DNA of 14,449 bases from a virus (IMGVR_UViG_2875713109_000007); one strand, 5' to 3'; shown: positions 1-14,449, counted from the stretch's first letter. The notes: generated from the sequence alone by a model not told the origin. Numbers and translations are program-made.

Positions 1-750
1 TCAGTCAATTGTTTTGTTTATTCCATCTGTGACGCCGATTATTTTCTCAAAATAATGAGATGGCGTGACACCATAATAATCTTTAAATGCACATATGAAA
101 TATGAAGTACTGTTATAGCCACATTTCTGGGCTACGACATTGATAGAATAAGAGTTTGAAGTTATGAGTTTTTTTGCATACCTCATCCTAGTATCTCTCA
201 ATATTTCAGTAAATGACGTTCCTTCATCCCTTAATCTTTTTTTTATTAAACTTTCACTCGTATAAATCAATTCCGCAATATCTTTTAAATGCCATTGCCG
301 CTCAATATTAAAACTGATTATTCCAGTAATTTTACAGGTAAATGTATTTATATTTGTTAGTATAAAAGAATTTACACTTTCGCGTTTTTTGAACATGGCA
401 AGTAAGGATATACATAGTCTTTCTTTTAACCAAAGGGAGTGTGAGTCTGCTATTTTAATCCCTTCAAACAGAGAAAAAACAAGCGATAATGGAGGTTCCT
501 CTTCAGCAATATAGCCATTCTTATCAAGAGTAAATTTGCCAGGCAGCTCATTATTCACGTCGATAAAAAAGGATAAACAAGTTTTCTTATCTATATCAAC
601 AATTCTTAGTTTAGAGGGGCATACTGGTAACTCCCTTCTAATTTTGTCGCTTACAATAAACAATGAATTTTTTTTGAACGAGATAACTCTCCTGTTTATA
701 ATTAAATCAAATGATTGACAGATGAAAACTACGGAGCAAACATAATCCAT
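1..750 (-). CDS. appY: AraC/XylS-family transcriptional activator, AppY-like, 249 aa
   Basis: Complete minus-strand ORF, ATG at 750-748 and TGA at 3-1. C-terminal AraC-type HTH region (…[29 protein letters not shown]). Length and N-terminus ([14 protein letters not shown]…) match my recollection of AppY; adjacent to tfaX/ybcY as in DLP12. Confidence 0.8.
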
Positions 751-1340
751 CTTGCACCTATCATAAAATTAAAACAAGTTGATAGCAGTCAAATAACAAC
801 CAATTAAATACACAATCATAATCAGGATGATGTGCATTTATATTTTTATACACAAAATTATAGTTTGCAAATTTTAATAAATTTCATTTAAGATTAAATT
901 ATTATATGTATATTGTTTTTTATTCTAACGTATTTCAAAGTTACATTTTTCAACGCTTACTATACTTTTTATTAACATAAACTCACTACAACGCACCTGA
1001 AACCTCTTGCTATATATATGTCAACCGTTTGAATTTAAAATAAAAAGAGTATCATTTTTACTTGCATTTCTTATCAAGTCACATTCAACAACAGTAAAAA
1101 AACATTATTAGAACCATTCAATTAACAAAAAAACCAACATCCAGCTTGCTTAATTTTTCTTTATTAAACGATATTGAAAATCAATTGATAAAATACATCT
1201 AAACAACCTTTTGGGGCGCAAAAGCATAACATCAAACAAATAACACACCGAAAAAACTCACAATTAATAACCTATGATATACATACTGTTTATTATGGTT
1301 GAATAAGCCACTCGATATCTGGTGCTACGGAAGTGTCCAC

Positions 1341-1450
1341 ACGGTTTAGCAGCACCCGATACTTTTTTCAGGCTTCCAGCAACGATCTTTCTTCCTCCGT
1401 TGCGATTTCCAGATCTACAGCATCCTGCAGTGGCGCAATATACTCACTGA
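1341..1450. repeat. Direct repeat copy 1 (tfa 3' region), about 88% identical to 4112-4221
   Basis: Hand alignment of 110 bp gives about 13 mismatches and no gaps; same orientation as copy 2. Confidence 0.8.
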
Positions 1451-1553
1451 ATTCCTGGATGTAGAACTGTGTGGTGACGGTCTTCCAGCTATTCGGCTCC
1501 TGCTGTATTGAAGCATACCAGGCTATTTCAATATCGCTATGCTGCGGCAGCAT
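1368..1553 (-). pseudogene. tfaX: Tail fiber assembly protein remnant, 61 aa, ended by an in-frame TGA
   Basis: ATG at 1553-1551 preceded by AAGGGG. The C-terminal part (…[23 protein letters not shown]) is homologous to the Tfa C-terminus encoded at 4064-4639. TGA at 1370-1368 replaces the TGG (Trp) of the paralog, and the frame continues [24 protein letters not shown] to a TAA near 1294-1292. Confidence 0.65.
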
Positions 1554-1609
1554 TTAACCCCTTGTAATTCATTGCCATAATTGATCTAATTCACAAATAA
1601 AACTATAAC

Positions 1610-2278
1610 ATGGTGAAATTAATGAAAAAAAACACAGATGATGGGGCTAAAATTTACACACCACTTACCCTAAAGCTTTATGACTGGTGGGTTTTGGGAG
1701 TATCAAATCGGCTTGCATGGGGATGTCCTACAAAGGAACACCTTCTTCCACACTTTCTGGAACATTTAGGTAACAACCATCTGGATATTGGTGTTGGAAC
1801 TGGGTTTTACCTTACTCACGTACCTGAGAGTAGTCTGATATCTTTAATGGATTTGAACGAAGCTAGCCTGAACGCGGCATCTACAAGGGCTGGGGAATCA
1901 AAAATTAAACATAAAATTAACCATGATGTTTTTGAACCTTATCCCGCGGCGTTACATGGTCAATTTGATTCCATTTCCATGTTTTACCTTCTTCACTGCC
2001 TGCCTGGAAATATATCTACAAAAAGCTGTGTAATACGCAATGCGGCGCAGGCCTTAACTGACGATGGAACTCTATACGGAGCCACAATTCTTGGCGATGG
2101 AGTTGTGCACAATAGCTTCGGTCAAAAACTGATGCGCATTTACAATCAGAAAGGCATCTTTTCAAACACAAAAGATTCCGAAGAAGGCTTAACACATATA
2201 CTCTCAGAGCATTTCGAGAATGTTAAAACCAAGGTTCAAGGTACTGTAGTAATGTTTTCCGCTTCAGGGAAAAAATAG
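1610..2278 (+). CDS. ybcY: Class I SAM-dependent methyltransferase, 222 aa
   Basis: ATG at 1610, TAG at 2276-2278. Glycine-rich SAM-binding motif I (LDIGVGTGF) followed by an acidic residue motif (LMDLNE). Position between tfaX and the tail module matches DLP12 ybcY as I recall it. Confidence 0.75.
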   Translation: MVKLMKKNTDDGAKIYTPLTLKLYDWWVLGVSNRLAWGCPTKEHLLPHFLEHLGNNHLDIGVGTGFYLTHVPESSLISLMDLNEASLNAASTRAGESKIKHKINHDVFEPYPAALHGQFDSISMFYLLHCLPGNISTKSCVIRNAAQALTDDGTLYGATILGDGVVHNSFGQKLMRIYNQKGIFSNTKDSEEGLTHILSEHFENVKTKVQGTVVMFSASGKK

Positions 2279-2285
2279 CATCCAA

Positions 2286-12342: not shown

Positions 12343-12409
12343 AGCATATTCTTTCCTGTTCAAACTGGAGAGAATTGTACTACAGTTTGAACTCAACTCA
12401 CCTGTTTCA

Positions 12410-12712
12410 TCATTGTGTTCCCATTGATGTTCTTTTATATACCCTCAGTACCCGTTTCATCGCGGCACTCTGGCGACACTCCTTAAAAATCAGATTCGTG
12501 CTCACCTTTCCTTCCCGTTCTTCTCTGGTAGCGAACCGGTAATACACCGTTCGCCAGACCTTACCATCAACGACCAGGATTCCTGCCCGCGCCATTTTAG
12601 CCGCAGCCTGATTTATGCTGGTTACGGTTGCGCCTGTTACCGCGGCAACGTCCTGTGCACAGAAGCTCTTATGCGTCCCCAGGTAATGAATAATTGCCTC
12701 TTTGCCCGTCAT
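12410..12712 (-). CDS. renD: Lambda Ren-like protein, 100 aa
   Basis: ATG at 12712-12710 (MTGKEAIIHYLGTH…AAKMARAGILVVDGKVWRTVYYRFATREEREGK) closely resembles lambda Ren as I recall it. Its start overlaps the upstream stop as ATGA. Confidence 0.8.
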   Translation of the reverse strand: MTGKEAIIHYLGTHKSFCAQDVAAVTGATVTSINQAAAKMARAGILVVDGKVWRTVYYRFATREEREGKVSTNLIFKECRQSAAMKRVLRVYKRTSMGTQ

Positions 12713-12891
12713 ACACTTGCTCCTTTCAGTCCGAACTTAGCTTTGATTTCTGCGATCTTCGCCAGAGCCTGTGCACGATTTAGAGGTCTACCGCCCATGA
12801 CAGGAAGTTGTTTTACTGGTTCAGGTATCGCCTCACCACGGTTAATTCGCGCGGTCACTCCCTGCAAAATCCTGCGTTCTACCCACAACAA
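12709..12891 (-). pseudogene. C-terminal fragment of a lambda P-like replication protein
   Basis: Ends …NRGEAIPEPVKQLPVMGGRPLNRAQALAKIAEIKAKFGLKGASV, matching the lambda P C-terminus as I recall it; TGA at 12711-12709. Only about 55-60 codons remain and no O gene or intact P is present upstream. Confidence 0.6.
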
Positions 12892-13058
12892 AGTTCACTA
12901 CATCCGAAAAGGCAGAACATGTATCGCCAGCATGTTCCGCTTTAATCATGACTTTGAACCTGTGAATAAAGCTGATGCAGATCGGATAGCAGAAGAGATC
13001 GAAACGGCAGAACACATTAAGAAGTTACGTGACATGCGTTCAAAAAGCAGAGGTAACC

Positions 13059-13430
13059 ATGGAATCATACAGCCTCACACTCGATGAGGCCTGTCAGTTT
13101 CTTAAGATATCCAGACCAACCGCCACCAACTGGATACGAACAGGCCGCCTACAGGCAACACGTAAAGATCCAACCAAGCCAAAATCTCCTTACCTCACAA
13201 CACGGCAAGCCTGCATTGCGGCGCTTCAGTCTCCGCTGCATACTGTCCAGGTGAGCGCGGGTGATGGCATAACAGAGGAAAGAAAATGTCACTCTTCCGC
13301 AGAAATGAAATATGGTATGCCTCGTATTCGCTCCCGGGCGGGAAACGAATTAAGGAATCTCTTGGCACAAAGGACAAGCGGCAAGCTCAGGAGTTGCACG
13401 ACAAGCGAAAAGCAGAACTCTGGCGAGTAG
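13059..13430 (+). CDS. xisD: Excisionase-like HTH protein (AlpA/Xis family); 3' boundary uncertain, possibly degenerate
   Basis: ATG at 13059 with AGAGG SD; HTH-like [26 protein letters not shown]. The ORF as read runs to 13430 and overlaps intD by about 145 bp in another frame, which is unusually long. Confidence 0.5.
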
Positions 13431-14449
13431 AAAAGCTAGGGGATTTACCTGATGTCACTTTTGAAGAGGCCTGCCTAAGATGGCTTGAGGAAAAAGCTGA
13501 TAAAAAATCTCTCGATTCAGATAAAAGCCGGATTGAGTTCTGGCTTGAACATTTTGAGGGTATAAGGCTTAAAGATATCTCGGAGGCAAAGATTTACTCT
13601 GCTGTAAGCAGAATGCATAACAGAAAGACGAAAGAAATATGGAAACAGAAAGTTCAGGCCGCCATCAGGAAAGGTAAAGAACCGCCTGTTTATGAACCAA
13701 AGCCAGTATCAACTCAGACAAAGGCAAAGCATCTTGCCATGATAAAGGCCATTCTCCGTGCTGCAGAACGCGACTGGAAGTGGCTGGAAAAAGCGCCTGT
13801 CATCAAGATACCAGCGGTCAGAAACAAGCGAGTCAGATGGCTGGAAAAGGAGGAAGCAAAACGCCTTATTGATGAGTGCCCCGAACCACTGAAATCTGTC
13901 GTCAAGTTTGCGCTGGCAACTGGTCTGAGAAAGTCGAACATCATAAATCTGGAATGGCAACAAATCGACATGCAGCGACGAGTTGCCTGGGTGAATCCAG
14001 AAGAGAGCAAATCAAACCGCGCCATTGGTGTGGCGCTGAACGATACCGCCTGTAAAGTGTTGCGTGATCAAATAGGCAAGCATCACAAATGGGTGTTTGT
14101 ACATACCAAGGCGGCTAAGCGAGCAGATGGAACATCAACGCCTGCGGTCAGGAAGATGCGCATCGACAGCAAGACATCATGGCTATCAGCTTGTCGTCGT
14201 GCAGGAATTGAAGATTTCCGTTTCCATGACCTCAGACACACCTGGGCAAGCTGGCTGATTCAGTCAGGCGTCCCATTATCAGTGCTTCAGGAAATGGGCG
14301 GATGGGAGTCCATAGAAATGGTTCGTAGGTATGCTCACCTTGCGCCTAATCATTTGACAGAGCATGCGAGGAAAATAGACGACATTTTTGGTGATAATGT
14401 CCCAAATATGTCCCACTCTGGAATTATGGAGGATATAAAGAAGGCGTAA
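13286..14449 (+). CDS. intD: Tyrosine-type phage integrase, 387 aa
   Basis: ATG at 13286 with GAGG SD; C-terminal catalytic region with [15 protein letters not shown] and RYAH (catalytic Tyr); TAA at 14447-14449 is the window end. Confidence 0.9.

Follow-up and report, generated by a model that had tools for sequence, protein, structure and literature searches.

Introduction

DLP12, the cryptic prophage of Escherichia coli K-12 that was reportedly described by Lindsey et al. in 1989 and has been known since that year, occupies positions 564755-586056 of the annotated MG1655 genome, from argU to just beyond ompT. Its annotated gene order runs from intD through ren-emrE-ybcK-ybcL-ybcM-ybcN and rusA-quuD to an nmpC porin gene split by IS5, followed by the lysis genes essD-rrrD-rzpD, bor, nohD, tfaD, ybcY, tfaX and appY; ren is split by IS3 and ybcY is frameshifted, and emrE, ybcN, ninE and ybcO are intact. 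The element is present in 74% of 638 E. coli and Shigella strains, with a 47-bp attR (PMC6379469).

The DNA analysed here, IMGVR_UViG_2875713109_000007 (14,449 nucleotides from a virus, hereafter the window), is an argU-linked prophage of the DLP12 family that extends from appY to intD, an already-known kind of object. An initial annotation, made from the sequence alone, gave the K-12 order as it is annotated and read the window as a mosaic, domesticated prophage, in which a DLP12-like backbone carried a pin module of the Qin/Rac type, the lysis cassette was absent and host-beneficial genes had been selectively retained. Comparison with complete genomes and with intact relatives recovers the same backbone and points to a different history, in which the window is very probably explained by recent deletions in an otherwise near-unchanged phage of the family, leaving a remnant that would not be inducible.

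Identity and locus of the window

The window was compared by megablast with 5,426 complete E. coli genomes (the set to which all genome counts below refer), of which 5,364 gave matches. In K-12 strains the matches extended over 83% of the window, were 97.9% identical and followed the gene order of DLP12, with collinearity in both BLAST blocks and annotation (ren-emrE-ybcK-ybcL-ybcM-ybcN-rusA-quuD-porin and ybcY-tfaX-appY), and the integrase next to argU is a tyrosine recombinase of the IntD type, as expected of the DLP12 family. The window spans the appY stop codon (base 1) to the intD stop codon (base 14449), and only the ompT end and both attachment (att) sites of a complete element fall outside it; the 47-bp argU att core does not occur within the window, while the corresponding repeat of the argU 3' end (attL/attR) is present in strains PSS-07, K-12, REL606 and NT1N25.

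The nearest record is PSS-07 (NZ_AP027673.1), in which a near-identical sequence is flanked by ompT on one side and by tRNA-Arg (argU) and then fimZ on the other, a setting that marks the DLP12 attachment locus. The two sequences have no mismatches across 14.4 kb and differ only by a 17-bp and a 1,788-bp deletion in the window, so that, by the test that the initial annotation had itself proposed, the window is a known structural variant. Nothing in it is new in kind: save these two private deletions the arrangement is annotated in a RefSeq genome, and its intact relatives are deposited as phages. What is gained, with little significance beyond annotation, is the precise position of each breakpoint in a further decay state of an E. 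coli prophage that is very common.

Measured against a functional lambdoid prophage (cI, cro, O, P, S-R-Rz, terminase, head and tail), the window has 0% coverage of every gene except essD (15%) and P (21%); a presence/absence matrix likewise gave 0% for rrrD, rzpD, bor, nohD, terminase and all head and tail genes. The absence of terminase and endolysin noted initially is therefore confirmed. No spanin is present either. Of the holin gene essD, codons 1-11 survive at 4866-4897, fused in frame to the side tail fibre gene stf. K-12 DLP12 shares the argU locus and a backbone 99-100% identical to the window, including the same AppY, YbcM, YbcL, YbcK, RusA and QuuD proteins. It differs in keeping essD-rrrD-rzpD-bor-ybcV-ybcW-ylcI-nohD and a terminase fragment, in lacking ynaM-ydfK-pin (window 2320-4076) and in carrying another porin allele.

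Intact relatives and the deletion map

The full lambda-like layout of this family is seen in phage PhiR34_1 (PV340559.1, 44.6 kb, laboratory host MG1655). Its early region comprises int, exo-bet-gam, cI-cro-cII, O-P and ren-emrE-ylcJ-ybcK-ybcL-ybcM-ybcN-ninE-ybcO-rusA-ylcG-Q; past Q follow a porin gene on the opposite strand, S-R-Rz and bor, then a late region with Nu1-A, head and tail genes to J, lom and stf-tfa, and finally pin, a ynaE/ydfK-family gene and a ynaM-like gene at the end of the record. Window 2312-14449 aligns to PhiR34_1 in four collinear blocks at 99.95% identity. Besides three large deletions and one of 17 bp, the two differ by an insertion of one base and 6 substitutions in ~12.1 kb. 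Sister phages from the PhiR series have served as plaque-forming lambda relatives (bioRxiv 10.1101/2025.11.03.685801), and a literature search for the source paper of the PhiR phages returned only a paper by users, in which PhiR34_1 is not mentioned.

The other end of the window is matched by two further relatives. The argU locus of strain S10 (NZ_CP010229.1) is occupied by a prophage of 47 kb that appears complete and at both ends has the gene order of the window; over window 1-4871 only one substitution and the 17-bp deletion separate the two. Phage Kati (PP925833.1) holds window 1-4871 contiguously at 99.4% identity, and once the 17-bp deletion is set aside both S10 and Kati are ~99.9-100% identical to this segment. 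In Kati a single 47-bp argU core lies between the int arm and the ompT arm (positions 4757-8356 of extract L008), which is the structure of an excised circle. In the deposited sequence ompT, appY, tfaX', ybcY and the pin module thus all lie inside the att-bounded genome of Kati, with ompT and appY as cargo. The nin region of Kati differs from that of the window, and PhiR34_1, S10 and Kati all keep the immunity, replication, recombination, lysis, packaging, head and tail genes that the window does not.

The deletion map can be read directly from these alignments. The largest deletion (Delta-1, 25.1 kb) removed PhiR34_1 bases 16933-42049, starting at holin codon 12 and stopping short of the final 80 stf codons, and with them the lysis, bor, packaging, head and tail genes. 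Its junction, at window 4866-4871 with 6 bp of microhomology (ACACCC), joins essD codons 1-11 in frame to the last 80 stf codons (aligned to K-12 essD and NT1N25 stf), and occurs only in the window and PSS-07. Because Delta-1 joins essD directly to stf, the truncation of the tail fibre and the loss of the lysis cassette are one event. A second deletion (Delta-2, 441 bp or 147 codons) at 7884/7885 removed ninE and created an in-frame YbcN(1-102)-YbcO(44-) fusion, which the nonsense codon E79* ends at 137 amino acids; the initial annotation had recognised the nonsense codon but not the in-frame deletion. In the left arm 6.9 kb are missing (phage bases 1615-8500), comprising the 5' end of the DUF4222 gene, traR, exo, bet, gam, cI, cro, cII, O and most of P.

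Delta-1, Delta-2, the nonsense codon in ybcO and the frameshift in emrE recur in PSS-07, the left arm of which is intermediate, retaining P' (237 nt), gam, bet', DUF1382, orf61, traR and DUF4222. From this state the window lacks a further 1,788 bp at 12857/12858, from inside P' to inside DUF4222, and the 17 bp at the stf/tfa junction (4649/4650). The 17-bp deletion took away the stop codon of stf together with the seven codons before it, placing stf' in frame with tfa in a 277-amino-acid EssD'-Stf'-Tfa open reading frame (ORF), whereas stf' and tfa are separate ORFs in PSS-07. Neither of these two junctions was found in the complete genomes; both are clean, with 0-2 bp of microhomology and no long flanking repeats. 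Delta-1, Delta-2 and the 17-bp deletion each preserve an open reading frame.

Of the five or more independent inactivations counted initially, the emrE frameshift (one extra base at 12144) and the ybcO nonsense codon stand, but the tail fibre truncation belongs to Delta-1 and that of P to the cI-cro-O-P deletion, and tfaX', which shows one and the same pseudogene state in K-12, S10, REL606 and Kati, is ancestral rather than a lesion of the window's lineage. Breakpoints had been anticipated at 4900-5480 and near the tfa repeat; the main one lies just to the left of the former interval, and differences specific to K-12 fall at 2319/2320 and 4076/4077.

Proposed history of the remnant

The history that we regard as highly likely would start from a temperate lambda-like phage of the PhiR34_1, S10-prophage or Kati type, integrated at argU. 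A microhomology-mediated Delta-1 would have stripped the lysis, bor, packaging, head and tail genes, Delta-2 would have fused ybcN to ybcO, and stepwise deletions in the left arm would have taken cI, cro, cII, O, most of P and exo-bet-gam; the ybcO nonsense codon, the emrE frameshift and the two window-private deletions would complete the series. The remainder would be the phage's own cargo and its early and late regulatory genes (appY, ybcY, ydfK, pin, porin, quuD, rusA, ybcM, ybcL, ybcK, ren and intD). Such a remnant should be unable to replicate, lyse the cell or make particles, and because repressor, replication, lysis and particle genes are all missing it should not be inducible. Any effects on the host would come from cargo genes with their own promoters, and appY, the porin gene, ybcL, ybcM and ydfK may still be expressed. 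Loss of killing functions together with deletion bias is sufficient to produce this state, and no positive selection is needed; we infer the order of the deletion events and the absence of selection. Removal of host-killing functions is said, by Bobay et al. in 2014, to be a general pattern among prophages, with which the window is consistent.

Several observations weigh against this history. The PhiR34_1 record does not contain the 47-bp att core and its ends are trimmed, so that the appY end cannot be seen from that record alone, and the exact ancestor was not found, as S10 carries a different porin allele (82-97% identical to the window over 4800-6800). When six lesions were placed at random on the S10 map, all seven genes named as retained in the initial annotation (appY, ybcM, ybcK, rusA, quuD, pin and intD) were spared in 4% of trials, and selection on these genes may still have acted. 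In addition, strain Z0117EC0133 carries a different junction within 5 nt of the essD breakpoint of the window: the interior of an IS903B-like element is joined to essD codon 11-12 (positions 16012-16013 of extract L004), where the partner in the window is stf. This junction occurs in only one of the genomes, the two sequences are ~99.97% identical to the right of the breakpoint, and two independent end points as close as this have a chance expectation of ~1%. No further truncation at the essD breakpoint was found in a spread sample of 60 records, and the near-coincidence may reflect a shared ancestor with secondary events, or a hot spot.

Origin and nature of the pin module

The pin module that follows the porin gene, with its ydfK-like gene, is of the Qin/Rac type, as initially recognised. 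Window 2269/2282-4807/4818 (~2.5 kb) is 98.0% identical to K-12 Qin and 98.3% identical to Rac, with the same order and spacing of ynfT/ynaM - ydfK/ynaE - pin - tfa - stf, and Pin is identical to PinQ at 196 of 196 residues. Qin and Rac are other prophages at other attachment sites, and their modules directly abut the prophage end; in the window, by contrast, ybcY-tfaX'-appY (and ompT) lie beyond the module.

No separate history of module and flanks was apparent. The block appY-tfaX'-ybcY-ynaM-ydfK-pin-tfa-stf is unbroken in the S10 argU prophage and in Kati, ynaM-ydfK-pin-tfa-stf forms the right end of PhiR34_1, and module and flanks are contiguous in all three with 0-2 substitutions. Window 2200-4871 is moreover contiguous and joined to a longer stf gene in at least 220 genomes. 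Because the module stands in the same place, contiguous with its flanks, in S10, Kati and PhiR34_1, it is native to this prophage family and was inherited, not imported from Qin or Rac, and the mosaic origin proposed for the locus is not upheld. K-12 and E. coli B are the copies without the module. K-12 DLP12 should accordingly not be taken as the ancestral layout, as the pin module and intact ybcY, ren and porin genes belong to the intact phage. Loss of the module from K-12 by one clean deletion was considered and rejected, as the shared ybcY terminator hairpin is followed there by ~36 unrelated bases and a diverged tfaD 3' end (93.8%).

The window Pin shares the resolvase catalytic domain and the C-terminal helix-turn-helix (HTH_7) of the Gin, Cin, Pin(e14) and Hin recombinases, and thus the protein features of the Din family, but not the paired inverted crossover sites or the inverted alternative stf/tfa of those switches. 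A 26-bp gix/pix-type crossover consensus gave no match in the window at ≤3 mismatches, although a divergent site could have escaped it, and the crossover core motif gave one match where 0.69 were expected, which is chance level. Neither an invertible segment nor an inverted copy of stf/tfa is present in the window; the only tfa duplicate, tfaX', is a direct repeat (1307-1460 and 4078-4231, 154 nt, 82-87% identical), and the Qin and Rac modules likewise have no adjacent invertible segment. Pin may therefore be an orphan invertase without a substrate in cis, which could act only in trans. Action in trans is likewise assumed for PinQ and PinR.

Selective retention and alternative explanations

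Given these relatives, it is improbable that the pin module replaced the lysis-to-tfaD segment by recombination between prophages and that the intact genes were kept for the benefit of the host. The 98.0-98.3% identity to Qin and Rac and the identity of Pin to PinQ would fit such an exchange, as would the mosaicism of lambdoid phages and the variation of porin and pin-tfa alleles among relatives that are otherwise 99-100% identical, but the same module in the same place in three intact relatives does not. For selective retention speak the intactness of the seven named genes, which is correct (the first five encode proteins identical to those of K-12), the value of 0.04 from the naive random-placement test and published host benefits of cryptic prophages (PMC3105296, PMC6379469). 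We rejected the random-placement value as evidence, since the gene list was chosen post hoc and the value is driven by one 25-kb deletion; undamaged genes also include ybcY, ydfK, ylcG, ylcJ, ren, ybcL and the porin gene, none of which is on that list. With 6 substitutions separating the window from an intact phage there is no power to measure constraint, and because this divergence is ~0.05% intactness is the null expectation and uninformative about selection. Different strains keep different subsets: NT1N25 has lost quuD, rusA, ybcM and ybcK, K-12 and REL606 are without pin, and in the window itself the cargo gene emrE is dead. Nor does species-wide prevalence (counted where ≥80% of a query was present in one place per genome) favour the genes held to be retained, as appY was found in 828 genomes (15%), ybcM-ybcL-ybcK in 671 (12%) and intD in 1,646 (30%), against 2,268 (42%) for essD-rrrD with a DLP12-type upstream spacer, a count that may include other prophages. 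Host benefits have also been claimed for the DLP12 lysis genes themselves (PMC7918800; Toba et al. 2011, as cited in a passage of PMC6379469), which runs counter to a division into dead phage genes and beneficial host genes. Domestication with selective retention is thus not supported by the window, and an intact gene set in a young remnant should not be taken as evidence for it.

Two further explanations concern the deletions themselves, and both are less likely still. If the 17-bp and 1,788-bp deletions were artefacts of assembly or sequencing, the locus would be the PSS-07 allele; their absence from the complete genomes and the identity of the remaining sequence to PSS-07 would agree with this, but the junctions are clean and lack the long repeats that cause assembly collapse, and strain-private deletions are common at the argU locus, which makes an artefact very unlikely. 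It is equally hard to credit that the deletions rewired the late operon into a Q-dependent host regulatory circuit. In such a circuit the EssD(1-11)-Stf'-Tfa chimera would sit directly behind a retained late leader and an intact quuD, and QuuD-modified polymerase would express the chimera and continue in antisense across pin, ydfK and ybcY as far as appY, which lies on the same strand ~4 kb downstream of the chimeric ORF. In this reading the essD breakpoint shared with Z0117EC0133 might also mark a preferred site of recombination.

Variation among related prophages

The presence/absence matrix showed a different deletion state in each strain examined. NT1N25 has lost the segment from the porin gene through DUF4222, with appY, pin, iss and half of stf remaining; the lysis cassette is still present in K-12 and REL606, and cI-O-P in Z0117EC0133. 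In Z0117EC0133 the pin-tfa segment is diverged (89-93%) and a truncated IS903B-like element and a macro-domain gene take the place of stf, the macro-domain gene (positions 14451-15275 of extract L004) lying 8 bp upstream of tfa, where the stf 3' end belongs. REL606 (E. coli B), which represents yet another state, carries ompT at its argU prophage locus but was rejected as a match for the window, as its porin gene is split by IS1, ybcY and pin are absent and another tail-fibre module is joined within tfaX'. Homology between REL606 and the window stops within tfaX' (positions 23378-23488 of extract L011), where the tfa repeat seems to be a recombination joint.

Relative to K-12, S10 and REL606 the backbone is 99-100% identical, whereas identity drops to 82-94% in the porin gene and the region upstream of it. 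The porin allele is hypervariable, especially at 6001-6400 (82-88% against these three strains, with surrounding backbone >99%). The window allele is identical in PhiR34_1 and Z0117EC0133, and the differences from the other alleles cluster in a few blocks with small indels. The DLP12 family is thus mosaic, as lambdoid phages are. PhiR34_1 matches both sides of every junction, and the window itself needs no exchange to explain it.

Gene content

The features of the window are listed in Table 1. The porin gene, correctly called intact in the initial annotation, encodes a protein identical to that of PhiR34_1 (360/360) and matching K-12 NmpC at 329 of 365 positions. IntD is full length, with one difference from PhiR34_1 Int and two from K-12 IntD. 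The xis-like ORF is that of PhiR34_1 save for the substitution at 13341, which also falls in the overlapping intD, and the homologous K-12 region (xisD) is annotated as a pseudogene. The ybcY gene is intact in the window, S10, PSS-07 and NT1N25 and a frameshifted pseudogene in K-12. The hairpin at 5037-5058 (-) may be the late-leader terminator tR', as it is at the expected position, and quuD lies intact 1.7 kb away.

Table 1 Features of the 14,449-nucleotide window. PGAP, Prokaryotic Genome Annotation Pipeline; SAM, S-adenosylmethionine.
Feature	Coordinates	Strand	Description
appY	1..750	-	AraC-type activator, intact, 249 amino acids, identical to K-12 AppY; cargo near attR end
tfaX'	1293..1553	-	Tail-fibre assembly gene remnant; PGAP pseudogene in identical PSS-07 sequence
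ybcY	1610..2278	+	Class I SAM-dependent methyltransferase, intact; Pfam methyltransferase domains
Hairpin and T run after ybcY	2269..2320	.	Qin/Rac homology begins here; PhiR34_1 record ends at 2312
ynaM/ynfT-family small gene	2644..2757	+	Pfam YnaM, E = 6.5e-28; PGAP
ydfK	2826..3059	+	77/77 identical to K-12 YdfK
pin	3376..3966	+	Small serine DNA invertase, intact; Pfam Resolvase (PF00239) and HTH_7 (PF02796)
tfa	4064..4639	-	Tail-fibre assembly; Pfam Caudo_TAP; 189/191 identical to TfaQ; 3' part of chimeric ORF
stf'	4640..4871	-	Side tail fibre C-terminal remnant; 80 codons, 73 left after 17-bp deletion
essD'	4866..4897	-	First 11 holin codons; aligned to K-12 essD
Chimeric ORF, 277 amino acids	4064..4897	-	EssD(1-11), Stf remnant (~73 amino acids) and Tfa, in frame; Pfam: Tfa domain only
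Terminator-like hairpin and T run	5037..5058	-	Upstream of essD', between porin and essD'; pattern scan only
Porin, NmpC/OmpD/Lc type	5487..6569	+	Intact, 360 amino acids; Pfam Porin_1, E = 3e-153
quuD	6758..7141	-	Late antiterminator (Q homologue), intact, identical to K-12 QuuD
ylcG	7227..7367	-	PGAP annotation of identical PSS-07 sequence
rusA	7364..7726	-	Holliday-junction resolvase, intact, identical to K-12 RusA
ybcN(1-102)::ybcO(44-78) fusion	7777..8190	-	Pfam YbcO at residues 100-135; E79* at 7777-7779
ylcH-like small ORF	8187..8288	-	Annotation
ybcM	8405..9202	-	AraC-family regulator, intact, identical to K-12 protein
ybcL	9212..9763	-	Periplasmic Raf-kinase-inhibitor-like, intact, identical to K-12 protein
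ybcK	10228..11754	-	Large serine recombinase, intact; Pfam Resolvase, Recombinase, Zn_ribbon_recom; identical to K-12
ylcJ	11812..11961	-	Annotation
emrE pseudogene	12009..12342	-	Extra base at 12144; frame shifts after Val64
ren	12410..12712	-	Intact here; split by IS3 in K-12
P 3' remnant (replication gene)	12709..12857	-	Deletion junction 12857/12858
DUF4222 gene	12858..13086	+	Without about its first 15 codons
xis-like ORF	13029..13430	+	Partial HTH_17 (Pfam profile positions 2-32 of 51); PGAP: incomplete
intD	13286..14449	+	Tyrosine integrase, intact, 387 amino acids; argU 15 nt past window end in PSS-07

A promoter scan of the window gave no more matches than shuffled sequence and is uninformative. 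An Rfam scan found no riboswitch or known prophage small RNA in the window, its sole match being IS009 (RF02111) at 4098-4296 (-), which scored 220.9 bits (gathering score 117) and lies wholly within the tfa coding sequence. Three recombinases of different kinds, IntD (tyrosine), YbcK (large serine) and Pin (small serine invertase), occur together in this one phage family, and PhiR34_1 carries all three.

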